This document shows positions 902 to 55,302 of a stretch of DNA of 64,000 nucleotides, piece by piece. The first letter of the stretch is position 1; each line of letters starts with the position of its first letter. The notes beneath the pieces are model-generated. The model was given only the letters and a program-made list of their open reading frames with translations, ran no database searches and was not told the DNA's origin. The DNA is from Oscillospiraceae bacterium. GTDB lineage: Bacteria; Bacillota; Clostridia; Oscillospirales; Ruminococcaceae. The position numbers and the translations under genes were made by a program. The stretch spans positions 41,491 through 105,490 of the forward strand of contig JAZUSM010000119.1 in NCBI GenBank assembly GCA_045606725.1, written 5' to 3'.

Positions 902-930
902 ATTATACCGTATTTTCGTTGAATTGTCAA
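902..930 (-). promoter_or_regulatory. SigA-type promoter of the marR-adh unit (TTGACA-17 nt-TATAAT)
   Basis: Reverse strand: TTGACA (930-925), 17-nt spacer, TATAAT (907-902). This is a perfect consensus about 45 nt upstream of ATG 858. Confidence 0.6.
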
Positions 931-984: not shown

Positions 985-3900
985 TTATTCTGTACGGAGT
1001 GCAACAACCGGGTCTTTCTTTGCTGCGCTTCTTGATGGGATAATACCTGAAATAAGTGTAAGAAGCACACTGATAATAACAAGAATTGCTGCTGCGGGAA
1101 CAGGAAGAACTGCTTTGAGGTTGCTGATATCAGTAAGATTATACATAATGATATTGATCGGAATACACAGGAGATATGTTACAACTACGCCGAGAAGTCC
1201 TGCTGTAAAACCAACGATAACTGTTTCTGCATTGAACATTCCTGAAACTTCCTTCTTGGACGCACCGATTGCACGGAGGATACCGATTTCCTTTGTTCTT
1301 TCCTGAACGGAAATAAGTGTTATAACTCCAATCATGATGGAGGAAACGATAAGAGAAATTGCAACAAATGCGATAAGAACATATGTGATGGCGTTGATGA
1401 TTGTTGTAATGGAGGACATCATAATACCGAGATAGTCGGTATACTTAATCTGTTTGAGTTCCTCAACAGAGGAATTATATTCATCAATTGCTTCTACAAT
1501 TACGTCCTTATTTTCAAAGGAGGAAGCGTAAATATTGATTGTTGCAGGGTATTCTATATCTATATATCCCATTTTTCTGAGATTATCCTCATAGGTGGAA
1601 TCAGAGAATACCATGATTTCATCATAGTAGAGTGCAGCCTGTTCATCCGTATAGGTTGGAATTGCCATATCAAGAGCACCTGCAAGCTGGTCAGGTGTCA
1701 TTACTGCCATCTGTGTGACAATCTCTGCTGCATACTGAACCTTAATCTGCTCCTTCATCATCTGTGTGAAGAAGTCAGTCATTTCCTCATCTGTCATGGA
1801 CTCAAAATACTCTGTAATTTCATCTGCTGAAACTCCGACCTGTGTTCCCAGTGCATCAGCAAGGGTTGCTTCTATTTCCTCACGGGTCATAGCACCGAGA
1901 GTTGCGTCAATCTGCTGCTGAACGAATTCAGGTGTAGGGACGCAGCTGATTGAAACATAAGCTGCTGCCTTTCCGTTTGTATCAAGTCCTTCGAGGTATT
2001 CAACGAGCGCGGTCTTCTTATCTGCATCGGAAAGGCTTCCTGTTGTAGAGTCAAAAGGAAGTCCTGTAATGACATCTGTATCCGGTGTTTCAAGCTGTGC
2101 TTTAACAACGTCTGTTTCGTCAGCCTTTTCGATAAGATACTTTGTAAGGTCGCTTGTATATGCGATATAGCCTGTAAGCATTGCTGTATCGGTATCTTCC
2201 TTAGGGCGTACAATACCTGCTACTTTCATTGTAAGGGCATTGTCATAGAGATAACGGAGTCCTGCTTCAGTTTCACGCATATCTGTGTAAAGTCCCGTTG
2301 CTTCGTCATAGTGATAGCAATCAGCGTTAAGAATTGTTTTATATTCTGTGTTGCAGATATCCTCATACGTCCACTTTGTTGTACCTCTGTCAGAAAGCTC
2401 AACCTTATCAATTGCAGCAGAAGCGAGATCCTCAATCTCTCCTTCGGAAACAAGACCAAGTGCATAAAGAACAATATCATCAAGCTCGTTATTCTTGTCA
2501 ACAACAAGCACTACTTCGTCATAGCTGTCAGGCCATGTGCCGTACACAACCTCATACTGGTCGAGGATAAGGTCATTTACAGGTGCACCGTTTTCACCGG
2601 GAAGAAGCTCCTGCCAGAGTTTCACTCCTCCCATACCGCTCATGGAGGACATGCTTGCCATATTTGCATTGGACATTTCAACCATAGAGGACATATCCAT
2701 ACCGACATACTGTAGCATAAGGTCGATAATGATTTCTTCCAGGTTGGTATACATAATCTTATCATCTACAGTTTCAGTATAAAGCTGCAGGTCAAGGTTA
2801 TATCCGTACTGAACACCGTTTACTGCTTCTGAAAGCTTGCTTTCCTTATCGGCAAGCTGTGCGCCAATATACTCATTGAACGCTTTCAGGTCGTTTTCGC
2901 TGGTTTCGATATTGTTCATTGCGTTAATCATATCGTAAAGAGCGGTTTTCTTGTACACGGCGTCATTCTCGTGGGCTGTTTCCTCGGAATCAACATTCAT
3001 GAACGCCTCCATAAGTGCGGACATTTCAACGGTTGTTGCTTCAAGGGTAAGAGGATAAGCTGAAAGTGTGCTTTCCTGAACATCATTGATATAAGCTGTC
3101 ATACCTGTTGAAATAGCAAGGATAAGTGCGATACCGATGATACCGATTGAGCCTGCAAAGGAAGTGAGGATTGTTCTTCCTTTCTTGGTGAAAAGATTTT
3201 TCAGGGAAAGCATAAAGGATGTGCCGAAAGACATGGAAGGCTTCTTTGTTTTCTTTGCATCCTTGTTTGCTTCTTCGACAGCCTTGTTTTCGTCAGCAAT
3301 TTCTTCTTCGGTAAGCGGCATTGAGTCGTTTGTGATAACGCCGTCAAGCATTCTGATTATTCTTGATGAATACTGCTCGGCAAGCTCAGGGTTATGGGTT
3401 ACCATAACGATAAGTCTGTCCTTGGATATATTCTTGAGGATTTCCATTACCTGCACGCTTGTTTCTGTATCAAGAGCACCTGTAGGTTCGTCCGCAAGGA
3501 TAATGTCGGGGTTATTTACAAGCGCACGGGCAATTGCTACACGCTGCATCTGTCCGCCTGACATTTCGCTTGGTTTCTTTTTAAGCTGGTCACCGAGTCC
3601 CACATCTTCAAGGGCTTTCTTGGCTCTTTCGCGGCGTTCGGCTTTGGATACACCTGAAAGCGTGAGAGCAAGTTCAACATTCTGGAGAACAGACTGGTGA
3701 GGAATGAGGTTATAGCTCTGGAAAACGAAACCGATAGAATGGTTTCTGTAAGCGTCCCAATCTCTGTCCTTGAATTTTTTGGTAGAAGTTCCGTTAATAA
3801 CGAGGTCACCCTCTGAGTATCCGTCAAGACCGCCAATGATATTGAGCATTGTTGTCTTACCGCAGCCTGATGGTCCGAGAATTGACACGAATTCAGATTT

Positions 3901-3987
3901 GCGGAATTGCAGGTCTATGCCCTTAAGTGCGTGCACAACTCCGTCGCCTGCAGGGTAATCCTTTTTGATTTGCTTCAGTTCCAGCAT
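985..3987 (-). CDS. Fused ABC transporter: N-terminal ATPase plus FtsX/MacB-type permease with a very large extracytoplasmic domain
   Basis: Track ORF is 985..4023. Start trimmed to ATG 3987 ([11 protein letters not shown]) because GGAGG lies 9 nt upstream. Motifs: Walker A GPSGCGKT, signature SGGQMQR, Walker B ILADEPT. One TM after about aa 280, then a roughly 570-aa acidic region, then a C-terminal FtsX-like TM bundle. Confidence 0.85.
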
Positions 3988-4062
3988 TGTTATACTGCCT
4001 CCAGATTCAATATATAAAAGCATTTGGTAACATTGTTAAGAAAATAACTTTCCAACTACATA

Positions 4063-4091
4063 ATTATACTCTCAAAGCCTTTCCCTGTCAA
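4063..4091 (-). promoter_or_regulatory. SigA-type promoter of the fused ABC gene (TTGACA-17-TATAAT)
   Basis: Reverse strand: TTGACA (4091-4086), 17-nt spacer, TATAAT (4068-4063). Confidence 0.6.
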
Positions 4092-4131
4092 CAAAATCCT
4101 GTTTTTTTCACATAAATTTCACTCAATGACA

Positions 4132-4161
4132 AAAGTCCGCACCAAAAGGCACGGACTTTTG
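4132..4161. terminator. Hairpin terminator closing the DUF58/MoxR unit (bidirectional shape)
   Basis: AAAAGTCCG-caccaaaaggca-CGGACTTTT. On the reverse strand the stem is followed by TTTTGTCATT. It lies 118 nt downstream of the stop at 4279. Confidence 0.7.
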
Positions 4162-4278
4162 TGAAAAAGAAAGAAAGTAAAGAAAGGAGAATAACTTCTG
4201 GAGTTTGTTACAACTGTATTATAGCATATCAATTTACTGCCGTCCAGTGTTTGGTGTACAGATTATTTCCCATCTGTG

Positions 4279-5469
4279 CTATGACAGCAATTCTGCTGAA
4301 TAATCCTCATTAATTCTCCATATTCGTTCTGCGCTTCCGCTTATTATCTTTTCAGCTGTTACAACAGCGCAGGACATTCCCTGCTCCTCAGCAAAAGCAA
4401 TTTCTGCACTCAGATTGCTGTCCAGCAGAGGGGTATAAATCATAAGCGCTCTTGAACCGCCTGACAGCATTTCTTCAACAGGAACACGTGTTATTTTTTT
4501 CTGCCCCGCAAGCTGACGTTCAAAACTGAAATCCGCAAGTCTTGTCTGTAAAACGGAAACATCACCAGGCTCAGAAATTGAAATTGCTTCATATATTCCG
4601 TTAAAACGGCAATGAACCGTTGACTCAAAACCACATTTAAGCATTCCGAGTGTGGCTGCAAGCATACCCTCTACGGCTCTTTCGTTTTCATAGATATTGT
4701 TTCCTCCAACGCTGTCAAGTATAATATTCTGCCTGATTGACTCAATTTCGTCATCAAGTCTTGTCATATATTTGTCGCGCTTTGATGAAAGCTTCCAGTT
4801 TATCCGTCGTATAGGGTCACCCTCGATATACTCCCTGTGAGTGTACCCTGGCATTCCTGAAAAGCCTGTTACACTTTCGCTTTCGCTGGTTTCCTCGCTG
4901 TCATCGGCAAAACGTGCTGCCTCAACAGCTGAACGAAGAAGCGGCGAGTCCCCTTGTATTTCGGGAATATCTGGAAACACCTTTACCTCATTCATGGAAT
5001 TAAGGCAGGACATACGAAACTTGAAAAATCCCATAAAATCGTGCAGAAATGCACTTTCTGAACCAATAATATATCGTCCCCACACCTTAGCCTTATAATT
5101 GATTTCCACGACACTTTCACTTCTCGGTGATACGCTTACAACATAACAGCTGCAATCGTCCTCGGGGTCAAGTCCACCTGTTGCGGCAATTCTTATTTTT
5201 ACGGCGGGTACAGGAAAAACACTTCTGTTGCGTACAACAATTCTTAGAGTTGACATTTCACCCTTATATAACATCGTACGATTGACATCGGAAGTTACCG
5301 ACACCCTGTTATTCTTTGTAAGGAAATATGTTATTGCCAGTGAAAAAATCGGTGCGCAGACAAGCATATATACAAACGTCCAACCGATAGGCGCTGACAA
5401 ACACAATGCAAAAGCGACACTTATTGCAATTGCAATAAGGTACAGAAAAACACTGATAAACATTTTCAT
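4279..5469 (-). CDS. DUF58 domain protein (MoxR partner), copy 1
   Basis: 396 aa with N-terminal TM helices and the DUF58-type motif REYIEGDPIRRINWKLSSKRDKYMTRLDDE. There is a 10-nt gap to the MoxR gene upstream. Confidence 0.8.
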   Translation of the reverse strand: MKMFISVFLYLIAIAISVAFALCLSAPIGWTFVYMLVCAPIFSLAITYFLTKNNRVSVTSDVNRTMLYKGEMSTLRIVVRNRSVFPVPAVKIRIAATGGLDPEDDCSCYVVSVSPRSESVVEINYKAKVWGRYIIGSESAFLHDFMGFFKFRMSCLNSMNEVKVFPDIPEIQGDSPLLRSAVEAARFADDSEETSESESVTGFSGMPGYTHREYIEGDPIRRINWKLSSKRDKYMTRLDDEIESIRQNIILDSVGGNNIYENERAVEGMLAATLGMLKCGFESTVHCRFNGIYEAISISEPGDVSVLQTRLADFSFERQLAGQKKITRVPVEEMLSGGSRALMIYTPLLDSNLSAEIAFAEEQGMSCAVVTAEKIISGSAERIWRINEDYSAELLS

Positions 5470-5479
5470 GGCAGTACCC

Positions 5480-6409
5480 TTATTCTGTCGGCACGGCTAT
5501 TCTGCCGAGAATTTTTTCAAATGCCTTTTCCGGAGTTTCATACATTGATTTTCCCTTTGGCGAAAGCATAATTCTGTGTGCAAGTGTACATACACAGCAA
5601 TCCTTTACATCCTGAGGGGTAATGTAATCACGTCCAGCCATAAATGCCCATGCCTTTGCGGATTTATACAGGGCAATACTTCCTCTCGGACTTACTCCAA
5701 GTCTGATACCCTCATCATTTCTGGTTTCGCTGACGATACTGATAATATAATTCTTTACCTTTTCTTCGGCACGAACCTGCTTGACCTGCTCCTGCAATTC
5801 CACGATATCTTCAATTTTCAGCACGGGTGAAATTTTTGAAACAGGGTTTTCAAACTCATTTCTGTCGAGAATGGAAAGCTCCTCTCCTGCTGTCGGGTAA
5901 CCCATACTTATTTTCATTGCAAATCGGTCCATCTGTGCTTCGGGGAGATGGTATGTGCCGTATGTTTCAACCGGATTCTGTGTTGCAAGTACCATGAACG
6001 GCTTGGGCAGAATATAGGTTGTACCGTCGATACTTACCTGATGTTCTTCCATTACTTCAAGGAGTGAGGACTGGGCTTTCGGCGAAGCACGGTTGATTTC
6101 GTCGGCAAGGAGGAAGTTACAGAAAGCTGCACCTTTACGATATTCAAACTCACCTGTTTCGCGGTTCAGCATAGAAAAGCCTGTAATATCCGATGGCATA
6201 ATATCAGGGGTCATCTGGACACGGCTGAACACGCCGTCCACTGACTTTGACAGTGCTGCCGCAAGCTGAGTTTTACCTACGCCAGGAACGTCCTCAACAA
6301 GGATATGTCCTTCGGTAAGAAGTGCGCAGACAGTCTGCATAATAGGTGTACGCTTGCCCACGATTACCTTTTCAATATTTTCGATAAGAAGCTGAATTTT
6401 TGCGTCCAT
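5480..6409 (-). CDS. MoxR-family AAA+ ATPase, copy 1
   Basis: Track start 6487 would overlap the upstream gene. ATG 6409 (MDAKIQLLIENIEK) follows AAAGGAAAAAAACT. Motifs: Walker A VPGVGKT, Walker B LLADEINR, and LATQNP. Confidence 0.9.
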   Translation of the reverse strand: MDAKIQLLIENIEKVIVGKRTPIMQTVCALLTEGHILVEDVPGVGKTQLAAALSKSVDGVFSRVQMTPDIMPSDITGFSMLNRETGEFEYRKGAAFCNFLLADEINRASPKAQSSLLEVMEEHQVSIDGTTYILPKPFMVLATQNPVETYGTYHLPEAQMDRFAMKISMGYPTAGEELSILDRNEFENPVSKISPVLKIEDIVELQEQVKQVRAEEKVKNYIISIVSETRNDEGIRLGVSPRGSIALYKSAKAWAFMAGRDYITPQDVKDCCVCTLAHRIMLSPKGKSMYETPEKAFEKILGRIAVPTE

Positions 6410-6425
6410 AGTTTTTTTCCTTTCT

Positions 6426-7481
6426 TTAAGCAAGCCCTGTGTCAAGCACAAGGGCAGGATTGATGATAATATCCTTGACCTCGTCACGGGTCAGAAGCTT
6501 TGTCCCCTGAGTGCCCTCAAGGAAGATTTCCTGCGAGGTTTCCACAAGGTCAAAGGACTGCTCCAGAACTGCCATGATTTCGGGGATTATCACGTTGTCA
6601 AGGGTACTTGCCAGCAAACCGACGGCAAGTATCGGATTGGTTGTTTTTGCGTACTCATCAGCGGCATCTGCAAGTCGGTCAAGCGCCTTGATAAGCCTGT
6701 TAAAATAGGAAAGGCTGTCCTCGTACATTGCACCGAACTCTTCGCCGTGCTGATCAGCACTTTTATACTGCTTTTCAAAATCGTCACGGATAGCTGTAAT
6801 ATCATCACGCAGTTTGCTGTAATCGGCTGTCATCAGGCTTGTTATGTCAGACATATTTACGCTGTCGAGAACCATATTCAGTGATGTTATCACGCTGTTT
6901 TCCATTTCATTGGCAAGCTGTTTCTTCTCTTTCAGTTCGGGACGTGTTTCCTGTTTGACGTATACGTTGCCGTTGAGAAAATAGTGGTCAATAAGGAATT
7001 TTGTAACACGATTCTGCTCGTCAGCAGAGAGGGTAAACATTGTTTTTATTGGAATACCGCTTCTGTCCGTAGGGAGAAGTCCTCCACGGGTGAACTCGGT
7101 TATGATTTCTTCCGGTACTTCCTCGGTAACGGCTGTTGTTTCCGTTGTTTTTTCGGTATCAAGGGGAACTGTGGGGAAGCTTTCCGTTGGAACTGTTGTA
7201 AGCACGATAGGCTCAGTTTCTGGTACGAGGGGTGCTGTTGTGACAGCGGTTTCCTGTCCTTTCAGTTCCACATCTGTAACGGCAAGCTTATCACCAAGCT
7301 GTTCCTTGGCTTGCTCCTCGGCTTTCTGGATTTCAGCCTGAAGCTGTCCCTGGACGATTGCTTCAGCGAGGGTTTTATCCTTTGTTGCGGCTTCCGCGAC
7401 GTACTTTTCGGTGAAGTGTGATGCAAGCAGCACGCTTATCGTGCCGACGATTAGGATTGCTATTATTTTTATTGTTTTCAT
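6426..7481 (-). CDS. Hypothetical N-terminally anchored extracytoplasmic protein with a Thr/Glu/Pro-rich linker
   Basis: Track start GTG 7487 is only 2 nt from the SD AAGGAG, whereas ATG 7481 has 8-nt spacing (MKTIKIIAILIVGTISVLLASHF). Linker is TETTAVTEEVPEE. The C-terminal helical domain has no family I recognise. Confidence 0.6.
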   Translation of the reverse strand: MKTIKIIAILIVGTISVLLASHFTEKYVAEAATKDKTLAEAIVQGQLQAEIQKAEEQAKEQLGDKLAVTDVELKGQETAVTTAPLVPETEPIVLTTVPTESFPTVPLDTEKTTETTAVTEEVPEEIITEFTRGGLLPTDRSGIPIKTMFTLSADEQNRVTKFLIDHYFLNGNVYVKQETRPELKEKKQLANEMENSVITSLNMVLDSVNMSDITSLMTADYSKLRDDITAIRDDFEKQYKSADQHGEEFGAMYEDSLSYFNRLIKALDRLADAADEYAKTTNPILAVGLLASTLDNVIIPEIMAVLEQSFDLVETSQEIFLEGTQGTKLLTRDEVKDIIINPALVLDTGLA

Positions 7482-7501
7482 CAGCACGACTCCTTTCGTT
7501 C

Positions 7502-8119
7502 TTACTTGCTGAAATCAAGCATTAAAAGCTTTTTGCCGTTGGGTAATTTTTCTTCAGATTTATTGCACAGCAAATAATCAATTTGCTTCATTGCATTGAC
7601 AAGACCGTCCTCGTCAATCTGATTGTGGACGCTTTCAATTCCGTCGAAAGCGTGGAGATACGGCGAGTCGGAAACAAAGCCATCGCCTGTATTTATCTGA
7701 ATTACGCAGGAAACCTGCTTGGGGCTGACCTTATTTACGACACGTTGAAAATTTTTGTAGCCGATATATTCAATCAGCAAATCAGCAACCACGAAATCCG
7801 CTTCGGGCAACTGAACAATTTCGTCCGTCAGGTCGGCGCAGATAAATTTTGCTACACCGTTCAAGTGCGGGTATCTTTCACTGCATTTCTGCAGATATTC
7901 GTTGTTGACGTCAACACCGTAGACCGCGTTATATTCGGCGGGGTTGATATGTTCAAGTCCGTTTCCGCCTGCAATGCCCAGTATCATAATGCTTTTGCAG
8001 GGGTAGCTTTCAAACTGCTGTTTCATCATTGAATTGAGCGTCTGCAACTGCATAACGCTGTCAAGGCTCATATGATTTTCGTAGTCGGACAGGCTTACTT
8101 CTTCCCAAGGGTTTTTCAT
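7502..8119 (-). CDS. Class I SAM-dependent methyltransferase
   Basis: 205 aa with motif I ILGIAGGNGLEHI and an acidic post-I residue (VYGVDVN). SD AAGGAG lies upstream. Confidence 0.7.
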   Translation of the reverse strand: MKNPWEEVSLSDYENHMSLDSVMQLQTLNSMMKQQFESYPCKSIMILGIAGGNGLEHINPAEYNAVYGVDVNNEYLQKCSERYPHLNGVAKFICADLTDEIVQLPEADFVVADLLIEYIGYKNFQRVVNKVSPKQVSCVIQINTGDGFVSDSPYLHAFDGIESVHNQIDEDGLVNAMKQIDYLLCNKSEEKLPNGKKLLMLDFSK

Positions 8120-8164
8120 TTTTATAAAACTCCTTTAGTTATTATTTGCAAAATCAATTCAACA

Positions 8165-8737
8165 TTATTTTTCCAAATCTCCGATTGAAAACGATATATG
8201 TTCAACGTTTCCGCTTTCATTGCAGGTAATGCGCACTATAAATTGTGAATTATCATCTATATCAACCTGTACTGTTGAACTGCAACTTGTTTGAGTTACA
8301 TAATCAAATGCTCCAAAATATTTTTCTACATCTTTCATATTACTGCAAAATGATAATCCATTTACATATATTGGACAATTCTCACTGAAAATTACAGACT
8401 TTACATATCCGTTGTATATATCTCCTGATAAGCTTTCATCAACAATTCTTGCTGCACCTACATATTTGCCATCATAATTTATATTCACATCAACCAAAGC
8501 GTTATCATCGCTTTGATAAAAAATCTGAAACTCAAAATCATCTCCAAAATTTTTCAAGCTAATAGGTACATCTGCTTTTCTATCATTTATCAATATGCAC
8601 TCTTTTAAAGTTTCATATGTCCAGCCTGCTTCAATAGGTACACCAACTTTTTCAACCTGTGTGCTTTCATCAGTCTTACAGCTCGACAAGCTCAACACAA
8701 CTACGATTGCTATAAATAATGATAAAATTCGTTTCAT
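8165..8737 (-). CDS. Hypothetical lipoprotein
   Basis: 190 aa with a signal peptide and lipobox LSLSSC. SD AAGGA lies 7 nt upstream. The gene is markedly AT-richer than the flanking genes. Confidence 0.65.
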   Translation of the reverse strand: MKRILSLFIAIVVVLSLSSCKTDESTQVEKVGVPIEAGWTYETLKECILINDRKADVPISLKNFGDDFEFQIFYQSDDNALVDVNINYDGKYVGAARIVDESLSGDIYNGYVKSVIFSENCPIYVNGLSFCSNMKDVEKYFGAFDYVTQTSCSSTVQVDIDDNSQFIVRITCNESGNVEHISFSIGDLEK

Positions 8738-8774
8738 ATTATGTTCCTTTCTGTTATGTTTAAATTGCGAATTA

Positions 8775-9527
8775 TCAATAAAGCTTCTTCCCTCCGAAAT
8801 CCTTTTTACGCACAGAAGCTATGCAGAAAACGTACATTGCGGCTGTTGCGGCGGCGAGGACAAGACAGCGGAGAAGCTGGCTTCCTGCGCTGTTGGAAAT
8901 CACAAGCATATTGCCAAGTCCAAGTGCTATTCCTGCAAAGAGGGACATGAACAATGCGGTGGACTCCCTGTCGGTTGCGAGGGAAACAAGCATATTTACC
9001 GTGCCGCAGAGGACATAGAAAAGAAGCACTGCGGCGGATGCGGCGATTATTGTGGGGACGGGTGCGGTTGTGAAGTCCGTTGCGGGCTGTCCCGACATTA
9101 CACGGAAGCCAACGAAGTCACCTGACCACACGTTGCTGAAATTGAACGCTCTTGAACAGATGATAAGGTTGATTGCGAACATTACTCCAAAAAAGACAGC
9201 GCTGTTCACGAGGTAGGTCAAAAGCTTGCCTGCGAGCCAGTTTGCACGGCTGCCGCAGCGGAGGATTTCTATTCCGCCGAAGCCGCTGTCGAACATTATT
9301 CCGCAGACCACGAACAGGTAAAGCGGCAGGTAGATGAACACGATATTCATCGGGTCGGTAAGTATAAGAAACAGCACTTCCATTGCCGAAAATGTTACCA
9401 TTCCTGCCATGTCGACATATTTATGGACGCTTACAACTGCCACAAATGCGATTACCGCGAGGGCAAGGCACCATCTTGCCGCAGGGATATGCTCGGAAAG
9501 GCTGAAACGCAGTCCTCTCAGTTTCAT
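8775..9527 (-). CDS. ABC-2-type permease subunit (LanG/MutG-like size and topology)
   Basis: 250 aa, polytopic and hydrophobic. The ATG overlaps the stop of the upstream permease by 4 nt (ATGA). Confidence 0.6.
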   Translation of the reverse strand: MKLRGLRFSLSEHIPAARWCLALAVIAFVAVVSVHKYVDMAGMVTFSAMEVLFLILTDPMNIVFIYLPLYLFVVCGIMFDSGFGGIEILRCGSRANWLAGKLLTYLVNSAVFFGVMFAINLIICSRAFNFSNVWSGDFVGFRVMSGQPATDFTTAPVPTIIAASAAVLLFYVLCGTVNMLVSLATDRESTALFMSLFAGIALGLGNMLVISNSAGSQLLRCLVLAAATAAMYVFCIASVRKKDFGGKKLY

Positions 9528-10204
9528 CTGCGGTCACCTGCCTTTCCGTAGAGGGTAAGCAGGATTGCGCTTGCTGTAAGGATAAGGGGCACGGCGAAAC
9601 GCTGTAGAGTTATTTCTCCGCCGTAGATTGAGGGTGCAATATCAAGTGGCGGATAGAAGCGTTCAAGTTTAAGATGCGGGAAAGCGTAGATACACAGCAG
9701 ATACAGCACCTGCGGCATTACAAGCGGTACGTAGCGATGGTGGTTTACGAAAGTCAGGCCGTAGGAAATTGCGGCATAGCCAAAGCCGAAAGTGATTGGC
9801 AGGACGAGGCATTTTGCCGCAAAAGAAAAATCGGGTACTCCGCCTATGCAAAGACACACCAGAAGCAGTGCAAGCTGTGGGATAACCAGGGCAAGCGCAC
9901 CCGAAATTCCGCTTGTGAGCAGACGTGCAAGCTGGTATCCATTTTTTCGGAGTTTGATTGTCATAAGCGTTCCGAAACGGGTTTCTTTTTCCTGCATAAT
10001 CATTACGGAGTACGGCATTGCTGCAAGTACGGGTGCGGCGAAAGGCAAGGCAAGAGCCTGTGCACTGGTATAGAGGGTTTCAGTTCCGCCTGCTGTCAAA
10101 TAGTACGCCATTGCACCAAAAAGCAGGATTGCGTTGAGTGCGATGCTTATAAAAAAGGCCGGCTCGGTTATTACACGCTTTAAGTCAGTTGACAAGAATT
10201 TCAT
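9524..10204 (-). CDS. ABC-2-type permease subunit (LanE/MutE-like size and topology)
   Basis: 226 aa, polytopic. Overlaps the ATPase gene by 20 nt. Confidence 0.6.
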   Translation of the reverse strand: MKFLSTDLKRVITEPAFFISIALNAILLFGAMAYYLTAGGTETLYTSAQALALPFAAPVLAAMPYSVMIMQEKETRFGTLMTIKLRKNGYQLARLLTSGISGALALVIPQLALLLVCLCIGGVPDFSFAAKCLVLPITFGFGYAAISYGLTFVNHHRYVPLVMPQVLYLLCIYAFPHLKLERFYPPLDIAPSIYGGEITLQRFAVPLILTASAILLTLYGKAGDRR

Positions 10205-10853
10205 CGTGCACCTCGATTATTTCTGCAACAGTTGAATTTTCGATACGAAATTTTTTTGTACAAAGGGAGTCTATATCCTCGGCAATATGGCTGGCCAGAA
10301 CGATTGTTGCACCTTGCTCATTAAGTTCGGTAAAAAGCTTTCTGATTTCGGCAACAGACTCTGTATCAAGGCTGTTCATCGGCTCGTCAAGGACAAGCAA
10401 TTCAGGTTTGTTCATTACCGCCTGAATTATACCTAATTTCTGACGCATACCGAGAGAATATGTGCGGACTCCCCTGCGGTTTTTAGGGTCGAGTCCCAAC
10501 CTTGTCATAAGGGCACAGATTTCCTCCGTTGGAACGGGATTTACGCTCATTGAGTTAAGGATTTTCAGATTTTTAAGACCGCTGTAATGCGGGATAAAGC
10601 CAGGGGTTTCAATCATTACCCCAAGCGACTCAAAAAAACGGTTTTGTTTTGTAAGGTTGACTCCGTCAAAGGTTACGCTGCCCTTATCGGGAACAAGCAA
10701 GCCTGTCATAAGTTTGAAAATAACGGTTTTGCCACTTCCGTTTCTGCCGACGAAGCCGCATATTTCACCTTTTTCTATTGTAAAGCTTACAGATTTCACA
10801 ACGGGAACTCCTCCGAAGCTTTTGCTGACGTCCTGAAAACGGATATAACTCAT
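10185..10853 (-). CDS. ABC transporter ATP-binding subunit (ABC-2/LanF-like)
   Basis: The track start 10913 sits inside the promoter. ATG 10853 (MSYIRFQDVSKSF) has GAAAGGA 8 nt upstream. Motifs: Walker A GRNGSGKT, signature LSLGMRQK, Walker B LVLDEP. Confidence 0.85.
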   Translation of the reverse strand: MSYIRFQDVSKSFGGVPVVKSVSFTIEKGEICGFVGRNGSGKTVIFKLMTGLLVPDKGSVTFDGVNLTKQNRFFESLGVMIETPGFIPHYSGLKNLKILNSMSVNPVPTEEICALMTRLGLDPKNRRGVRTYSLGMRQKLGIIQAVMNKPELLVLDEPMNSLDTESVAEIRKLFTELNEQGATIVLASHIAEDIDSLCTKKFRIENSTVAEIIEVHDEILVN

Positions 10854-10884
10854 ATGAAAAATCCTTTCAATTTTACTACTTACA

Positions 10885-10913
10885 ATTATAATATTTTTCC
10901 CTATAAATGTCAA
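10885..10913 (-). promoter_or_regulatory. SigA-type promoter (TTGACA-17-TATAAT) heading the ABC-2 to DUF58 gene string
   Basis: Reverse strand: TTGACA (10913-10908), 17-nt spacer, TATAAT (10890-10885). Confidence 0.6.
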
Positions 10914-10932: not shown

Positions 10933-10959
10933 AAAAAAGGCGGATATATAATCCGCCCC
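10933..10959 (-). terminator. Rho-independent terminator after the DUF4364 gene
   Basis: Reverse strand: GGGGCGGAT-tatat-ATCCGCCTT followed by TTTTTT. It begins at the stop codon. Confidence 0.75.
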
Positions 10960-11525
10960 TAATCAATATCAATTTTTATTTGTTCTTCTTCATTTTCAAG
11001 TGCAAAGCCTATTATTCTGCTGTAGAAATCAGTAGGGTTAAGCAGGATTTTATCCTTGATAACCTTAGCCTGGTCATAATCGGGTGCATAAAGGGAAATC
11101 CTCATCAAATCAAAGTTTGTATCCTTGATTCTGCAATTGACCTCACAACCGTTTGCAACCTCGGTTATCTCTATATCCGCTTCACTTTCACGTTTCAGAC
11201 GTGCAAAATAGTACATTGCTGTTTTAAGCAGCTTCTTACGGAAATAGTATGGTATGGAGTCATTGAAATACTCGGCACCGTATTTTCCCTTTTCGGTTGC
11301 TTCAATGTAAATTTCTCCGTTGCGTTCAACACGGACAACCGACTCATTCTTCAGCAGGTCGCCCATTGCTTCCGTATAATAAAAATAATTTATTATTTCA
11401 CTTTCCTGCACGATTTCGTAAAGCTGCTCTTCTGTGACGGGATTTTTCAGCTTGTCAAGGAGATAACACAGCATCACCTTTACGTCGTGGGCGGAATACA
11501 TTTCTATATTATTGAATTCGTTCAT
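10959..11525 (-). CDS. DUF4364-like protein
   Basis: 188 aa. The N-terminus (VKVMLCYLLDKLKNPVTEEQLYEIV) resembles the DUF4364 family common in Clostridia. Assignment is from memory only. Confidence 0.5.
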   Translation of the reverse strand: MNEFNNIEMYSAHDVKVMLCYLLDKLKNPVTEEQLYEIVQESEIINYFYYTEAMGDLLKNESVVRVERNGEIYIEATEKGKYGAEYFNDSIPYYFRKKLLKTAMYYFARLKRESEADIEITEVANGCEVNCRIKDTNFDLMRISLYAPDYDQAKVIKDKILLNPTDFYSRIIGFALENEEEQIKIDID

Positions 11526-16903: not shown

Positions 16904-17929
16904 TTACTTTGTAACAATAGTTGTGTCCGGGAGCTTATCGGTCAGTGAAGTCATGTCCTCGTCAGAAACGTCAATACCCTCAATGTATAGCTTTTTGAGT
17001 CCTGCAAGATTTGTCAGAGGATTAAGATTTGAAACGGGATTTCCGCCAAGCTTTATCCAGCCGAGGCTTGTAAGGGACATAAGAGGTTCAACATCTGAAA
17101 CCATATTGTTTTCAAGATAAATCTCCGTCATATCAACCATATTCATAACAGGAGTAATATCTGAAATCTGATTGTTCTGCAAATGGAGTCTGTCCATACG
17201 CTTCATTCCGCTTAATGCGGAAATATCGGAAATTGAGTTGCCGTTAAGACGAAGCAATGTGATTTCTGTCATTCCTGCAAGAGGAGTAATATCGGAAATA
17301 TTGTTTTCAGACAGGTCAAGCACTTCAAGTCCCAACAGACCGTCAAGTGCTGAAATATCGGTAATATTATTTGAGCGCAGGTAAAGATCCTTCAGGGAAA
17401 TAAGTCCTGCAAGCGGTGTAATGTCGCTGATATTGTTCTTGAACAGAGAAAGCGTCTGAAGATTTGTCAGACCTTTAAGAGGAGTGATGTCGCTGATATT
17501 GTTCTGATATATATGAAGTTCAGTAAGATTTACCATATACTTCAGATCCTTGATATCCTCATCTGTAAGCTCCATATTATTGAGGGTAAGCGCAGTAAGG
17601 CTTGTACTGTACTCCACGCCTTTTATTGTAATGAACTGAGGCAAGTCGGACATTACCTCCTCCTTTGCCGCAGCGGCTTCGCTTACAGCAGGATTATCCT
17701 TGCCCAACATGAAATCGGACTTATCCTTGAAGCCGATATTCGGTGAGGTTTCTGCTTTAAGAGATTCCACCTGAGATTCAAGTTCGGCAATTCTTGATTC
17801 ATAGCCTGCCGAATCAAAGGTTTCAGCAGGTTCAGCACCTGCTGTTTCCTTATCCTTACAACCTGTCAGGGACAACGCCATTGCAGCGGCCAGCAGTATG
17901 CCGAATGCACTCCTTATTTTTTTGTTCAT
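16904..17929 (-). CDS. Leucine-rich-repeat (internalin-like) lipoprotein
   Basis: Track start is 17992. ATG 17929 (MNKKIRSAFGILLAAAMALSLTGC) has AAGGA 8 nt upstream. It carries a lipobox and about 9 tandem 22-aa repeats LxxLxLxxNxISDITPLxGLxx. Confidence 0.85.
   Translation of the reverse strand: MNKKIRSAFGILLAAAMALSLTGCKDKETAGAEPAETFDSAGYESRIAELESQVESLKAETSPNIGFKDKSDFMLGKDNPAVSEAAAAKEEVMSDLPQFITIKGVEYSTSLTALTLNNMELTDEDIKDLKYMVNLTELHIYQNNISDITPLKGLTNLQTLSLFKNNISDITPLAGLISLKDLYLRSNNITDISALDGLLGLEVLDLSENNISDITPLAGMTEITLLRLNGNSISDISALSGMKRMDRLHLQNNQISDITPVMNMVDMTEIYLENNMVSDVEPLMSLTSLGWIKLGGNPVSNLNPLTNLAGLKKLYIEGIDVSDEDMTSLTDKLPDTTIVTK
16972..17602 (-). repeat. Coding tandem repeats: about 9 x 66-nt LRR units
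   Basis: Repeated peptides NNISDITPLKGLTNLQTLSLFK, NNISDITPLAGLISLKDLYLRS, NNITDISALDGLLGLEVLDLSE, NNISDITPLAGMTEITLLRLNG, and so on. Confidence 0.8.
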
Positions 17930-18285
17930 AATCATTTTCCTTTCAAAACAAAAACAGCCTGTGACACCTTTGCCGCAGACCGTTACAAACAATAGTTATT
18001 ACAACATCAGCTTTACAATTCTGTTATCGGCAATATATTTTTTTACGGCATGGAAAGTAAAACCCATAGCTAAAGTAAAAGCCTGCGCCTGCAAAAAATA
18101 TAAAGTTAAAAAAGCCAAGAACAGAATTTACAGCCTTCATACTTTTAACCTCAAAATTTAAATCTACATGGTTTATTATATACCTACAACAAGCTATTGT
18201 CAAGGTTTTTTGCAAAAAAAATGTCAAAACGTAACTTTATTCCATTTCAGTTACAATATGTAAACTTCATTTACCAAATTGTAAT

Positions 18286-18314
18286 TTGTATTACAATGTA
18301 AAGTGTGATATAAT
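18286..18314 (+). promoter_or_regulatory. Candidate promoter of the MoxR-DUF58-transglutaminase operon
   Basis: TTGTAT (18286-18291), 17-nt spacer, TG-extended TATAAT (18309-18314), 41 nt upstream of ATG 18355. Confidence 0.45.
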
Positions 18315-18354
18315 TGTTTCATATTCTGAAAATAAACTGTAAGGGGTTTTAGAT

Positions 18355-19311
18355 ATGACCGATGAAATAATCCGCAGACAGGTTCTTCCTGTTGCAAAGA
18401 AAATAAACGAGGAAGTCAAAAAAGCTGTTATAGGAAAAAATGATATTATTGTCAAGACCCAGCTTGCCATTATCGCTGGAGGGCACATTCTTCTCGACGA
18501 TATCCCCGGAGTAGGAAAGACGACCCTTGCCCTTGCTTTTTCCAAAGCTATGTCCCTTGACTATAAGCGTATGCAGTTTACTCCCGATGTACTTCCTGCT
18601 GATGTAACGGGTTTTACTGTTTACAACAAGCAGACAGAACGCTTTGAGTACAAGCCCGGTGCGGCGCTTTGCAGTCTGTTCCTTGCAGATGAAATAAACC
18701 GTACCTCCAGCAAGACTCAGAGTGCACTTCTTGAGGCGATGGAGGAAGGTTCTGTAACTGTTGACGGTGTTACACACGAGCTTCCCAAGCCGTTCATTGT
18801 TATTGCAACGCAGAACCCTATCGGTTCTGTCGGCACGCAGATGCTCCCCGAATCTCAGCTTGACCGTTTCATTGTCAGGCTGACAATGGGTTATCCTGAC
18901 CTTAACAGTGAGATACAGATTCTCAAGTCAAAAGGCTCAGACAAGCCTGCTGACAGCATCGTTCCTGTTGCAAATGCTGATGATGTGCTTATGCTTCGTG
19001 CGGCGGCTGAACAGATTTTCGTAGATGACCGTGTTTACAAATATATCGCTTCAATTTCGTCGGCAACCCGTACTCATCCTCAGATAAAACTCGGACTCAG
19101 TCCGAGAGGCTCGGTTGCCCTTGCGGCAATGGCCAAGGCTACTGCACTCCTAAGCGGACGTAGCTACGTTATTCCCGATGACGTAAAATACATTCTCAAT
19201 GATGTTGCTGAACACCGCATCATCATTTCTCCGAAAGCAAAGGCAGCAGGGGTAACTGCGGCTGATGTAATCCGTGACATAAGTGCACGCATACCCGCTC
19301 CGAAAATCTGA
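18355..19311 (+). CDS. MoxR-family AAA+ ATPase, copy 2 (YeaC-like)
   Basis: 318 aa with Walker A IPGVGKT, Walker B FLADEINR and ATQNP. By eye it is about half identical to copy 1. Confidence 0.9.
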   Translation: MTDEIIRRQVLPVAKKINEEVKKAVIGKNDIIVKTQLAIIAGGHILLDDIPGVGKTTLALAFSKAMSLDYKRMQFTPDVLPADVTGFTVYNKQTERFEYKPGAALCSLFLADEINRTSSKTQSALLEAMEEGSVTVDGVTHELPKPFIVIATQNPIGSVGTQMLPESQLDRFIVRLTMGYPDLNSEIQILKSKGSDKPADSIVPVANADDVLMLRAAAEQIFVDDRVYKYIASISSATRTHPQIKLGLSPRGSVALAAMAKATALLSGRSYVIPDDVKYILNDVAEHRIIISPKAKAAGVTAADVIRDISARIPAPKI

Positions 19312-19331
19312 AATCCGAAAGGACAAGCCTT

Positions 19332-20510
19332 ATGAGGTTATTCTATTTTTTTCTTCTGATTTTTTCGGTAATCTTCCATGTGCTTTACAAGGGTGACCTT
19401 TCTTTTATCCTGCTTGGATTTGTTATTATATTTCCTGTTTTCATGCTTGTGATACTTATTATCACTTCAAGGGCGGTAAAGGTCACGTCGCACTTTGAAC
19501 AGCTTTCGACGTCAAGAGGAAACTCTGCGGTGCTGAAAATAACAGTAAAAAACCGCTCTGTATTCCCTGTTGTAAGCTGTTGTGCGGAAATAAGATACAC
19601 TCCGTCTGTGCCGTTTGAAGCGCCTGCGGTAAAGAAATTCAGGCTCAGTGCTTCGGTTGGTGCACGCTCCGAGGAATGCTTCGCCCTCAACATAAAGCCT
19701 GAACACTGCGGAAGCACTGACATTTTTGCAGCAAAAATAAAAATCCGTGACATAATGGGACTTTTTTCAATTCCGATAAGAACAAACCTCAGTGGAAAAA
19801 TCATTTCCCTGCCTGTAATTTATCCGATACAAGCGGCAATTGAAAGCAATCCAGCTTCATCTTCGGAAAGCAGTACATTTTCTTCTGTAAAACCGGGCGA
19901 CGACCCATCGGAAATATTTGCGCTGCGTGAATACCGTGAGGGTGACAGCAGTACACGAATTCACTGGAAACTCAGTAGCAGAGGCGAAAACTTTATTGTA
20001 AAGGAATTTTCTCTTCCTGTCGGATGCAGGATACTGATAGTTACTGATTTCTGCGGTTGTAAGAATGCGTCCGCGGCTGACAGAATACTTGATGCTGCCT
20101 TTTCAGTTTCAGAATTTCTCACTGGATATGGCACTGCCCATTCGATAGCATACGCCTGCGCTGACGGCACAATACATTCTCAGGAAATCACTGACGAGAA
20201 TAATTTCAGCTCTGCCTCTGCGGAAATATGCGGCGTACTGAAAGATGCCGCATTTGAGATTACTTTTGCTGAAGCTGTTTCAGCAGATGGTTCGTACCAT
20301 GTGAGAAATAATTTTTCAAGAGTTATTGTTTTTTCCGACAGCACTGATATTGCCCGTGCGGAAGAGTTTGAAGCAGTCTGCGGAGAAGCACGGCTGACAA
20401 TAATCTGCACCGGTTCACCCTGCGCATCCGATGATGTTGAAAAATACCGTGCTGAAATTATTTATGCTGATGCTGAAACTCTCAGCAGCCGTGAACTGCT
20501 GATTATTTAA
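19332..20510 (+). CDS. DUF58 domain protein, copy 2 (YeaD-like)
   Basis: 392 aa with two N-terminal TM helices and the motif REYREGDSSTRIHWKLSSRGENFIVKEF. Confidence 0.8.
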   Translation: MRLFYFFLLIFSVIFHVLYKGDLSFILLGFVIIFPVFMLVILIITSRAVKVTSHFEQLSTSRGNSAVLKITVKNRSVFPVVSCCAEIRYTPSVPFEAPAVKKFRLSASVGARSEECFALNIKPEHCGSTDIFAAKIKIRDIMGLFSIPIRTNLSGKIISLPVIYPIQAAIESNPASSSESSTFSSVKPGDDPSEIFALREYREGDSSTRIHWKLSSRGENFIVKEFSLPVGCRILIVTDFCGCKNASAADRILDAAFSVSEFLTGYGTAHSIAYACADGTIHSQEITDENNFSSASAEICGVLKDAAFEITFAEAVSADGSYHVRNNFSRVIVFSDSTDIARAEEFEAVCGEARLTIICTGSPCASDDVEKYRAEIIYADAETLSSRELLII

Positions 20511-20528
20511 GAAAGGAGGTACGGCAAT

Positions 20529-23108
20529 ATGACTGAACTTACAGCTTCCGTAACTGTTACTGCCGCAGTAAAAAAAGCAGGAACAAAACCTACTCTGCAA
20601 ATGCAGGCGATACGCTTCATTATTGCCGTACTTGGCTGCTGCGGCTCTGCGTTTACGTTTCTTACCTGCTTTGATACAGGCGTGAACGGGTTTGCTGTTT
20701 TCTCGTTAATTGCGGGAATATGTCTTGTGGCAACCGCTTACAGACTCAGAAAAGTAATTGCCTGCTCAGCTCTTGCTTTATCAGCTGTAGGCTGTATTGC
20801 TGCTGCGGTAGCTTTGAGGGATTCATTCTCGTCTGGACTTGCGGGATTTATCAACACCTACTCCTCGCTTGCCTGGGAAAAATACCGCAAAAATCCGATT
20901 TTCACAATCACCGAACCTGAGCTTGCCGAGAAACACACAGCAGCTTTTATAATTCTTTCTGTACTCATAATATACACACTTGCCTGCTATCTTTTTATAC
21001 GCTGTGACGCAGGACTTTACTCGCTTTCGCTTCTGATTGCCCCGACAATTCCCGTTTTTGCAATCGGACTTGAGCCGCATCCATTGGCATTTACTGCACT
21101 TGTTTCGTCGGCAGCGGGTTTGATTGTTCTTGAATTTACTGCATCAAACACAGTTCACAGCCAGCAATTTGCCAAATATGGACTGCAATGTGCGGCAGCG
21201 GCTTCCGCTGTTTCGGCGCTATGCGTCGGGATTGTTTTCGGATTTGCGAAAATTACGGATTATGAGCGTCCTCAGGCACTCAATGACGTTTTTGACAAGG
21301 CTGACACCTACATCAACAGCGGCGAACTTAAGAACAACATCAGGGAAACATTTTCTCAGCTTACGGGAGATTTCTATGTATACGGAGCTATAAATCACGG
21401 AAAGCTTGACGAATTCGGAAAAATCAGGTTTGAATTCACAGATGTCCTTCAGGTTACAATGCCCCGTTCTGCTGATACGGTTTATCTGCGAGGCTTTGTA
21501 GGTTCTGTATACACGGGAAGAAGCTGGGAAGAGCTTCCCGCGGGAAAGCTCCGTGAGCTTGAAGAAATCACGGGTAATTTCTCAACAGATGGCTTATCTC
21601 CGCTTCTGCTGGACAGCTATAATCTGAAAAACGCACCTGCAATACTTCCTAACTACAGCTTCAAGGTGAAAAATATTGCGGCAAATCCTGATTATCTCTA
21701 TATGCCATACAATCTTGTACCCGAAAGCGTATCACGTTACACAATTGTTGACAACAGCTACTTCAAAGGAACTTCCACAACATATTTCGGACAGGTTTAC
21801 GACCCTGACAGTTATCACGGTTATCAGAATCTTTTCAGGAAACGCTGGTCTATTCCGTCATCGCTTATTGAAGATGAAGCGGCTTACAGAAACTTTGTAT
21901 ATGAAAATTATCTTGAACTGCCCGACACATTTTCTCCCTCGGAAATTTTTACTCAGAATTACTATGAATACATTACCGCAGAGGAAATTCAGACGGGAAA
22001 GAGCACACTTGATGAAATGACGGTATTCAGCAGAAAGCTTTACTACATCAAGGACTGGCTTCGTGACAACTGCACCTACAGCCTTACTACTGAACCGCTT
22101 CCAAAGGGAAAGGATTTCGTTAATCATTTTCTTGAATACAAGGAGGGCAGCTGCTCGCATTTTGCCACAACAGCTGTGCTTATGTGCAGATATTCTGGTA
22201 TTCCTGCAAGATATGTGGAGGGATATGTTATTACCCCTCATGACATTGATAAGAGTATTCCTGTCGGGGCAACTGTTACCGTTGATGTTGAGGACACTCA
22301 CGGACACGCGTGGGTTGAGGTCTACATTGATGGCTATGGCTGGTATCCGATGGAATTCACCTCGGGCTACGGCAATGTGAGAACAGCTTTTCCTACTGAA
22401 ACAACTGTTACTGAAACTGAACCTGCTACAGAAAGCTTTACAGAAGAAACCACTGAAACAACTGTTGATGCTGAAAGTGAAGAAACAGAGCAGGCTGCTC
22501 CTCAACCGCAGGAAAATACCACTGAAACCACTGTTGCACAAAACAGTGAAAATATCACACCTGCTGTTACGACAATTCCTTCCGAAGGAACTGAGAAATC
22601 TCTGTCAGAAAGCGATGACAAGAGTAAATCCAGGTCGATAGGTTTCGGTATTTTCGGAATAGAAGGGGAAAAGCAGGTTGATGTTGTTTACGACCTGACA
22701 TGGTTGCTGGTGCTTGTTTTATTGGTTGCAGCAATTCCTGCAGCTGTTATTTTACGCAGGATAATCATAATTTCAAGACGCAGGTCGGCATTATCGCCTG
22801 CTGCAAGGGCAAATGCCGAATACCGCCGTTTCTGCAGTCTTATCAGGATTATGAAGCTGCCTGAGCAAGGCGGTATGACTTACTCCGAATACGGAAATGC
22901 ACTTGCTGAACGCTCTCCGCTTCTTGATGAAGGCAATGCTTCACAGGTAATTGGTCTGGCACTTAAAGCCTCTTTCGGCGGCGACAGCATTACACATAAT
23001 GAAGTGCATGAAATGCAGGCTATAGTTACAACTCTTGCCAAAAGATATTATGCTTCTCTTTCGGCATGGGGCAAGTTCAAGATGAAATTTGTTCAATGCA
23101 TTATATAA
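20529..23108 (+). CDS. Transglutaminase-like membrane protein (YebA-like)
   Basis: 859 aa with an N-terminal polytopic region and a transglutaminase core (GSCSHFATTAVLMCRYSGIPARYVEGY, HGHAWVEVY). A Thr/Glu-rich linker (TETTVTETEPATESFTEETTETTV), a late TM and a C-terminal cytoplasmic domain follow. SD AAGGAGG. Confidence 0.85.
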   Translation: MTELTASVTVTAAVKKAGTKPTLQMQAIRFIIAVLGCCGSAFTFLTCFDTGVNGFAVFSLIAGICLVATAYRLRKVIACSALALSAVGCIAAAVALRDSFSSGLAGFINTYSSLAWEKYRKNPIFTITEPELAEKHTAAFIILSVLIIYTLACYLFIRCDAGLYSLSLLIAPTIPVFAIGLEPHPLAFTALVSSAAGLIVLEFTASNTVHSQQFAKYGLQCAAAASAVSALCVGIVFGFAKITDYERPQALNDVFDKADTYINSGELKNNIRETFSQLTGDFYVYGAINHGKLDEFGKIRFEFTDVLQVTMPRSADTVYLRGFVGSVYTGRSWEELPAGKLRELEEITGNFSTDGLSPLLLDSYNLKNAPAILPNYSFKVKNIAANPDYLYMPYNLVPESVSRYTIVDNSYFKGTSTTYFGQVYDPDSYHGYQNLFRKRWSIPSSLIEDEAAYRNFVYENYLELPDTFSPSEIFTQNYYEYITAEEIQTGKSTLDEMTVFSRKLYYIKDWLRDNCTYSLTTEPLPKGKDFVNHFLEYKEGSCSHFATTAVLMCRYSGIPARYVEGYVITPHDIDKSIPVGATVTVDVEDTHGHAWVEVYIDGYGWYPMEFTSGYGNVRTAFPTETTVTETEPATESFTEETTETTVDAESEETEQAAPQPQENTTETTVAQNSENITPAVTTIPSEGTEKSLSESDDKSKSRSIGFGIFGIEGEKQVDVVYDLTWLLVLVLLVAAIPAAVILRRIIIISRRRSALSPAARANAEYRRFCSLIRIMKLPEQGGMTYSEYGNALAERSPLLDEGNASQVIGLALKASFGGDSITHNEVHEMQAIVTTLAKRYYASLSAWGKFKMKFVQCII

Positions 23109-55273: not shown

Positions 55274-55302
55274 TTGACAACAGTAATGCTTTGGATTATA
55301 AT
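55274..55302 (+). promoter_or_regulatory. SigA-type promoter of the histidine kinase/response regulator operon (TTGACA-17-TATAAT)
   Basis: TTGACA (55274-55279), 17-nt spacer, TATAAT (55297-55302). Confidence 0.6.

Follow-up and report, generated by a model that had tools for sequence, protein, structure and literature searches.

We analysed 64,000 nucleotides of genomic DNA from an Oscillospiraceae bacterium (contig JAZUSM010000119.1, positions 41,491 to 105,490; hereafter 'the window'), in which eight genes read in the same direction combine a putative ATP-binding cassette (ABC) exporter with a MoxR-family ATPase and a DUF58 protein. These genes, which we label g1 to g8 in transcription order, lie on the minus strand between positions 10853 and 4279. 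The first three encode an ABC transporter ATPase of 222 amino acids (aa) (g1, 10853..10185; Pfam ABC_tran, 101.5 bits) and two polytopic membrane subunits, one of 226 aa with five to six hydrophobic segments (g2, 10204..9524) and one of 250 aa with six to seven (g3, 9527..8775). They are followed by genes for a 190-aa lipoprotein, which was recognized in the sequence by its lipobox, LSSC, and is without relatives (g4, 8737..8165), and for a 205-aa class I S-adenosylmethionine (SAM)-dependent methyltransferase (g5, 8119..7502; Pfam Methyltransf_11, 24.0 bits). The last three genes encode an N-terminally anchored protein of 351 aa, delimited by an alignment of homologues (g6, 7481..6426), a 309-aa MoxR-family AAA+ ATPase (g7, 6409..5480; AAA_3, 195.8 bits, and AAA_lid_2, 78.2 bits) and a 396-aa DUF58 protein, which was identified from homologues with PF01882 and from an AlphaFold2 (AF2) model (g8, 5469..4279).

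The genes are closely packed. Overlaps of 20 nt and 4 nt join g1 to g2 and g2 to g3, the gaps from g3 to g8 measure 37, 45, 20, 16 and 10 nt, in that order, and each of the eight starts has a ribosome-binding site of the GGA/GGAG type. These values agree exactly with the original prediction, which had read the eight genes as one transcription unit with a perfect promoter behind the terminator of the preceding gene, no terminator in any gap, and a first clear terminator at 4132-4161. All of these features were recovered here, and the length of the anchored protein had to be corrected, from 352 to 351 aa, with its ATG placed at 7481 by homologues. The promoter, TTGACA-17-TATAAT (10913..10885, minus strand), matches the consensus at 12 of 12 positions and follows the intrinsic terminator of the upstream DUF4364 gene (10960..10936, minus strand), a 10-bp stem with five G-C pairs and a T-run. 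Many related loci likewise have TTGACA-17-TATACT or TATAAT about 60 nt upstream of g1. The perfect motif occurs at five sites in the window (902-930, 4063-4091, 10885-10913, 18175-18203 and 55274-55302), where 0.02 would be expected by chance, and the source organism seems to use full-consensus promoters unusually often.

A scan of the window found no minus-strand terminator-like site in any gap between g1 and g8. The unit ends at an intrinsic terminator (4161..4132, minus strand) that a terminator scan missed because its T-tract is short (TTTTGT); we read it in the sequence and found it by our own scan, and the pairing of its stem is kept through five double-sided changes in four related loci (L002, L004, L005 and L006). 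A single transcript from g1 to g8 is therefore likely, given the promoter and the terminator-free gaps of at most 45 nt. It is likely rather than proven because there are promoter-like motifs inside the unit, one at 9074..9046 (10 of 12 positions) and a candidate internal promoter within g6, TTGACA-16-AATCAT (6601..6574, 10 of 12 positions), 193 nt upstream of g7; both are on the minus strand. Neither a riboswitch nor a leader was detected with Rfam within the operon or at its ends.

Conserved backbone and variable slot

We surveyed related loci by an alignment of g6 homologues, which yielded 53 loci (L001-L053) from species-representative genomes, and by tblastn with all proteins of the window. 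The loci are mostly labelled as Oscillospiraceae, Ruminococcus, Ruminiclostridium or uncultured Clostridia, and gut samples (ruminant, rabbit or other) are the source of many. The genes g1, g2, g3 and g6 occur together in all 50 loci that have enough upstream sequence, down to 32% identity in g6, and g2 stands directly after g1 in every related locus that can be judged. By this comparison, g1-g2-g3-g6 is the ancestral core. In one locus, the g2 homologue (L013:7078-7758) contains an in-frame stop codon, and is either a pseudogene or affected by an assembly error. Another locus (L043, JAMPIC010000026.1) is labelled as a metagenome-assembled genome of Prevotella sp., yet has a complete locus of the Oscillospiraceae type with the same upstream synteny (AroC, DUF4364), and is probably a binning contaminant.

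The pair g7-g8 lies directly behind g6 in 30–31 loci, representing about 30 species. It is absent from 19 loci with enough downstream sequence, in which the ABC genes and g6 are present and the next genes are unrelated and often on the opposite strand. The unit of the sister clade stops at g6, whose stop codon is often followed by a strong terminator at a distance of 2–40 nt. Where the pair is present, the gap between g6 and g7 is 14–37 nt in 28 of 30 loci, with no terminator between the two genes, while g8 is followed by genes of many unrelated families among the loci and synteny upstream of g1 is kept within subclades only. Since this gap is kept while both flanks vary, the junction of g6 and g7 is more stable than either flank. 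Proteins with leucine-rich repeats (LRR) occur around the pair in a few loci: in L039 an LRR lipoprotein gene is inserted between g6 and the MoxR gene, and in L026 and L035 LRR_5 proteins follow g8. In a tree built from concatenated g1, g2, g3 and g6, the loci with g7-g8 form one clade, and the sister clade and the outgroups are without the pair, a distribution that points to a single gain or, less parsimoniously, to a single loss. A g8 homologue with 50% identity is again found in an ABC–g6 context.

Six genes (the exporter genes, g6 and the MoxR–DUF58 pair) are thus a backbone common to about 30 uncultured Oscillospiraceae species of gut and rumen. The co-occurrence across genomes that the original prediction had suggested checking for all eight genes holds for these six, and the lipoprotein and the methyltransferase have no part in it. 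Similarly, the two halves of the unit are not without co-occurrence, their linkage recurring in about 30 species, but they are separable, as the 19 loci that lack MoxR–DUF58 demonstrate.

The remaining two genes lie between g3 and g6, in a slot whose content varies. The GC content of g4 is 0.32, and that of its third codon positions (GC3) is 0.23, compared with 0.43–0.51 in neighbouring genes. No homologue of g4 was found in the 53 loci, and a search of 5.8 billion protein clusters returned only g4 itself. Furthermore, a seven-gene version of the operon, without g4, is present on 24 contigs from near-identical strains (g8 identity, 99%), and in an alignment with these strains the gene lies within a cleanly bounded insertion of about 630 nt behind the stop codon of g3. 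The methyltransferase g5 scores above the Methyltransf_11 cut-off (24.0 versus 21.2 bits), has no relatives in the PDB or NCBIfam, and occurs only in L001 and in the window's own species (near-identical strains L058–L061). In 25 loci, among them the sister clade throughout, g3 and g6 are separated by just 19–56 nt and the slot is without a gene. A gene for a 126-aa protein of the glyoxalase/bleomycin-resistance fold (PF00903, 70.3 bits; loci L015, L017, L018, L023, L025, L030, L034, L043, L046 and L051) occupies it in ten species of the MoxR–DUF58 clade, and other loci have genes there for a 269-aa membrane protein, a DUF7674 protein or further small proteins that are unclassified. A deaminase-like label for a slot gene of 139–147 aa in relatives was dropped, as the gene has no Pfam match. 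The glyoxalase-fold gene may be a semi-conserved seventh member of the operon that was replaced by the methyltransferase in the lineage of the window.

To judge from these sequence comparisons, g4 is a recent strain-specific insertion and g5 is cargo of the variable slot, so that both are passengers. This bears on the reading originally offered, in which all eight genes are one dedicated envelope system whose MoxR chaperone aids the maturation or export of a surface component. That all eight genes have one promoter and one terminator, with none between, would fit such a system, but a low-GC gene without relatives that is missing from strains with 99% identical g8, a methyltransferase confined to the nearest relatives, and a slot that is empty in 25 loci and filled with unrelated genes in others would not. 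With respect to g4 and g5 this reading is largely refuted, and as a whole we consider it highly improbable. With two passengers among the eight genes, it would be misdirected to design experiments around an 'eight-gene system'.

The putative exporter, the anchored protein and the MoxR–DUF58 pair

The original prediction had described the exporter as LanFEG-like and of the ABC-2 type. For the ATPase this description is partly borne out, since g1 scores best in NCBIfam with TIGR03740 (lantibiotic-protection ABC ATPase), though at 166.8 bits against a cut-off of 309.75. The membrane proteins, on the other hand, match no ABC-2 or LanE/G model. For g2 there is a single sub-threshold match to ABC2_membrane_3 (19.5 versus 31.6 bits), and among 17 members of the g2 family only one has this match, again below threshold. 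Neither g2 nor g3 has a match in NCBIfam at E <= 0.01, and g3 has none in Pfam, even with 18 relatives searched too. A sequence search of the PDB gave no significant match for g2 alone, g3 alone or the g3 family profile (best E for g3, 1.3), and hhalign detected no kinship between g2 and g3. Near-identical proteins (L058-L061) carry a precomputed PF10920/DUF2705 tag for g3, which was not reproduced with current Pfam even at E <= 10; the tag reflects a difference between library versions.

The anchored protein g6 is built from one N-terminal transmembrane helix, a coiled coil, a stalk rich in Thr, Pro and Glu, and a conserved all-helical domain of about 225 aa. Lysines ahead of the hydrophobic helix and the Thr/Pro-rich stalk suggest that the protein faces outward. 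In its AF2 model the predicted local distance difference test (pLDDT) is mostly 70–92 for residues ~131–350, and 52 for residues 121–130. There was no match to g6 in Pfam or NCBIfam (hints of WXG100_2 and ATG17 in Pfam, at E ~0.01, were taken as noise), and a Foldseek search of the PDB with the model returned generic helical bundles only, with a best E of 0.087. The helical domain is accordingly predicted to be of a kind not seen before. The family is small, with 45 representatives among 1.84 billion proteins. Thus, g6 represents a small, lineage-restricted family that is the constant companion of an otherwise unclassifiable ABC exporter in Oscillospiraceae of rumen and gut.

The last two genes of the operon are easier to classify. 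With AAA_3 and AAA_lid_2 domains, a length of about 310 aa and a DUF58 gene 10 nt downstream, g7 has the hallmarks of MoxR proteins (MRP subfamily). It is 79–97% identical across the g7-g8 clade, which indicates strong purifying selection, while g6 drops to about 50% identity. The match of g8 to PF01882 is below threshold (17.2 versus 23.4 bits), but its homologues carry PF01882 and are named DUF58 at NCBI, so that its assignment to DUF58 is based on this family evidence, on a vWA-like domain and on its position, always behind MoxR. The AF2 model of g8 (mean pLDDT 79.6) consists of an N-terminal transmembrane hairpin, a beta-sandwich and a vWA-like alpha/beta domain. Foldseek aligned the model with sandwiches of the CARDB/macroglobulin type and with NorD in the NorQD complex (9qhd_G, E = 5e-5, 243 aligned columns). 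Where the metal-binding MIDAS (metal ion-dependent adhesion site) motif, DxSxS, would stand, g8 reads DSVGG. As a positively charged stretch follows the transmembrane hairpin, the domains of g8 are predicted to be cytoplasmic.

The origin of the pair is apparent from its relatives. Proteins with 42–48% identity to g8 are encoded in operons that consist of genes for an LRR_5 surface protein, MoxR, DUF58 and a Transglut_core protein, with no ABC genes beside them. The first gene of these outside operons encodes a surface protein of about 385 aa with a C-terminal anchor, an LRR_5 domain and an acidic stalk, and the fourth encodes a transglutaminase-core membrane protein of about 745 aa. The MoxR proteins of these operons are 73–74% identical to g7. 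By sequence comparison, g7-g8 is traced to a single capture from an operon of the order surface LRR protein–MoxR–DUF58–transglutaminase, and has no adjacent transglutaminase now. The ~745-aa transglutaminase has no full-length match in the window or in the first 53 loci.

Its sole match in the window is a short core-domain stretch within the transglutaminase of a second MoxR operon. This operon lies on the plus strand and has the canonical order MoxR–DUF58–transglutaminase: MoxR2 (18355–19311) is 46% identical to g7, DUF58-2 (19332–20510) is 25% identical to g8, and the transglutaminase gene occupies 20529–23108. Divergent from it is a gene for an LRR lipoprotein (16904–17992, minus strand), which has a perfect TTGACA-17-TATAAT promoter (18203..18175). 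The LRR lipoprotein gene and the second MoxR operon (16904-23108) are syntenic in L002, L004 and L006.

Possible coupling of MoxR–DUF58 to the exporter

Few bacterial operons without a known client or function are, to our knowledge, as widespread as those of MoxR–DUF58, whether or not these include a transglutaminase. A pair that is tied to a defined membrane module across about 30 species thus offers a concrete and testable candidate client, within the limits that the organisms are uncultured and that the linkage is one evolutionary event. We give even odds to a model in which the eight genes are one strongly promoted operon and a mosaic of three layers, with MoxR–DUF58 acting on the exporter–g6 complex. 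The first layer would be an exporter, composed of a DrrA/LanF-class ATPase (g1) and the mutually unrelated membrane subunits g2 and g3, together with g6 as its dedicated partner, and these proteins would work jointly at the cell envelope. The second layer would be MoxR (g7) and its membrane-anchored, vWA-like DUF58 adaptor (g8), captured once and kept behind g6. The third would be the exchangeable cargo between g3 and g6, here g5 and the recently inserted g4, which would merely use the strong promoter. In this arrangement MoxR–DUF58 might serve as a membrane-proximal AAA+ unit for remodelling or quality control at the cytoplasmic face, either for the exporter–g6 complex or for inserting g6. 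Its targets would then most plausibly be the membrane-embedded or cytoplasmic parts of the complex, or g6 before export. We propose this role because of an earlier proposal for the MoxR–vWA–YebA operon (PMC3495828) and because of the precedent of NorQD.

Several observations weigh against this model. The 'exporter' call itself rests on the ATPase class, the gene order and the translational coupling, and no homology to known ABC permeases could be detected for g2 or g3. By prediction, the conserved domain of g6 lies outside the cell but MoxR and the DUF58 domain lie in the cytoplasm, so direct contact would be limited to the transmembrane or N-terminal part of g6, or to the time before its export. 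Each module is also found alone elsewhere, the ABC genes with g6 in 19 loci and MoxR–DUF58 in transglutaminase operons. Moreover, the linkage goes back to one evolutionary event, and retention by descent or dependence on the upstream promoter would also explain it. Finally, among 30 loci with g7-g8, 15 have motifs matching at least 10 of 12 promoter positions within the final 300 nt of g6, compared with 2 of 19 loci without the pair. This enrichment in the g7-g8 clade hints at separate expression of the pair, though the count is only suggestive because the loci are phylogenetically related.

These observations lead to an alternative in which two independent modules are co-transcribed by history: a rearrangement would have split the pair from its transglutaminase, and the pair would have come to depend on the upstream promoter with no functional interaction. 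Besides the single gain, the separate occurrence of both modules and the candidate promoters upstream of g7 (15 of 30 loci versus 2 of 19), this alternative would accommodate L039, which tolerates an LRR lipoprotein gene between g6 and g7, and the presence of a complete second MoxR–DUF58–transglutaminase operon in the window. However, it does not readily explain why 28 of 30 loci keep a g6–g7 gap of 14–37 nt despite repeated rearrangement of the flanks and the g3–g6 slot, nor why g7 and g8 are intact and well conserved without an adjacent transglutaminase. Furthermore, the outside operons, L039 and the Bifidobacterium PFNA cluster (PMC8430577) all have a gene for an anchored surface protein just upstream of MoxR, which suggests that the position matters. 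We regard co-transcription without interaction as possible but somewhat doubtful, and a functional link between MoxR–DUF58 and the exporter–g6 complex as plausible.

A more specific form of such coupling is that MoxR–DUF58, without an adjacent transglutaminase, took the exporter–g6 complex as its dedicated client or signalling partner. We hold this to be unlikely. If true, the substrate of a classical MoxR–DUF58 pair could be read from its operon, and g6 would be either a protein that is remodelled or inserted by the pair, or a stalked surface sensor that is coupled via MoxR–DUF58 to the exporter.

The idea of a sensor can be extended to a sense-and-respond module, in which g6 would sense a threat from outside, such as a peptide, phage or epibiont, MoxR–DUF58 would relay the signal across the membrane in the manner proposed for the actinobacterial Esr pathways, and the ABC exporter would be the effector. 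Favouring this, the gene ahead of MoxR–DUF58 encodes an anchored surface protein in the outside operons, as it does in L039 and the PFNA cluster (PMC8430577), the model of the actinobacterial Esr pathways joins a surface sensor with MoxR, a vWA protein and a transglutaminase (bioRxiv 10.64898/2026.09.08.750141), and the slot gene of the glyoxalase/bleomycin-resistance fold in ten loci fits a defensive theme. On the other hand, the operon has no kinase, phosphatase, FHA, beta-propeller or transglutaminase gene, its promoter looks constitutive, and g6 partners the ABC genes without MoxR–DUF58 in 19 loci. The bpMoxR model is also below its cut-off (23.7 versus 27 bits) and PADLOC gives generic ATPase similarity only. 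We therefore consider such a module quite improbable.

Downstream of g8, a further conserved element (4246..4162, minus strand) comprises an extended -10 promoter, TGcTATAAT (4226..4218), a small 5′ hairpin and the invariant sequence UUCUCCUUUC. With the operon's terminator it makes up a small unit (4126-4246, minus strand) of 5′ hairpin, single-stranded UUCUCCUUUC, pyrimidine-rich spacer and terminator. The UUCUCCUUUC stretch is complementary to ribosome-binding sites. The unit is conserved in L002, L004, L005, L006, L058 and L060, where changes in the terminator stem are compensatory, and it has no counterpart among Rfam families. It is a candidate for a small RNA of about 85 nt or for a 3′-UTR (untranslated region) element that shares the terminator of the operon.

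The next gene encodes a MacB-like protein of 1012 aa (985-4023, minus strand), a fusion of an ABC ATPase and an FtsX-type permease, with its own perfect promoter (4091..4063). This gene is beside the operon only in the closest relatives of the window (L002–L006, L058–L062). In all, the flanks to about ±8 kb contain genes for DUF4364, a membrane protein, chorismate synthase and the MacB-like ABC protein.

Comparison with known systems

The closest comparison for g7 and g8 is the MoxR–vWA(DUF58)–YebA operon (B. subtilis YeaC–YeaD–YebA type), which has been proposed as a membrane-proximal system for unfolding and cleavage (Zhang & Aravind 2012, PMC3495828), and of which g7 and g8 correspond to the MoxR and DUF58 members. 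In that type the transglutaminase follows DUF58, whereas here g8 is followed by the MacB-like ABC gene with its own perfect promoter, and the pair sits instead behind an ABC exporter–g6 operon. The operon at 18355–23108 does fit this type, as a distant paralogue. A surface protein gene ahead of MoxR–DUF58–transglutaminase is also found in the Bifidobacterium PFNA cluster (PMC8430577). This cluster (pkb2–fn3–MoxR–DUF58–tgm; PMC8430577, PMC12067865) resembles our locus in that a gene for a secreted or anchored surface protein is immediately upstream of MoxR–DUF58, but our locus has no Ser/Thr kinase, FN3 protein or transglutaminase, has ABC exporter genes, and encodes an unrelated, helical surface protein. 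In M. tuberculosis, export of RipA requires MoxR1 (PMC12067865). For the actinobacterial Esr pathways, a surface sensor is proposed to work together with MoxR, a vWA protein and a transglutaminase (bioRxiv 10.64898/2026.09.08.750141).

The exporter genes resemble the LanFEG/CprABC-type ABC immunity transporters of Firmicutes in that an ATPase of about 220 aa is combined with two membrane subunits of about 225–250 aa, in an F-E-G-like order and with translational coupling. However, g1 is far below the cut-off of TIGR03740, g2 and g3 lack any match to LanE/LanG (MutE/EpiE, MutG) or ABC-2 models, and no lantibiotic biosynthesis genes and no LanRK-type or other two-component regulator were found in the flanks to about ±8 kb. 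An extracytoplasmic accessory protein encoded after the exporter genes is, we presume, loosely comparable with LanI or LanH. By sequence criteria, the exporter is not a member of the LanFEG family.

A precedent for the suggested action of the pair is NorQ–NorD, in which a MoxR-class AAA+ ATPase with a vWA adaptor remodels the membrane-bound NO reductase. The likeness lies in the combination of an AAA+ ATPase with a vWA-like adaptor acting on a membrane protein complex, and in the match of the g8 model to NorD. The differences are that there are no nor genes here, that g8 has an additional transmembrane hairpin and beta-sandwich, and that it has DSVGG at the MIDAS position.

Two further candidates were rejected. 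PADLOC gave generic ABC-ATPase similarity only with respect to anti-phage defence, and for a MoxR–vWA–beta-propeller conflict system the bpMoxR model reached 23.7 bits against 27, with no propeller or effector genes present. Judged by its gene content, the locus is neither a complete MoxR–DUF58–transglutaminase operon nor a known defence system. A literature search found no paper on MoxR–DUF58 fused to an ABC exporter operon. The parts are thus of known kinds, and it is their combination in one operon that is new.

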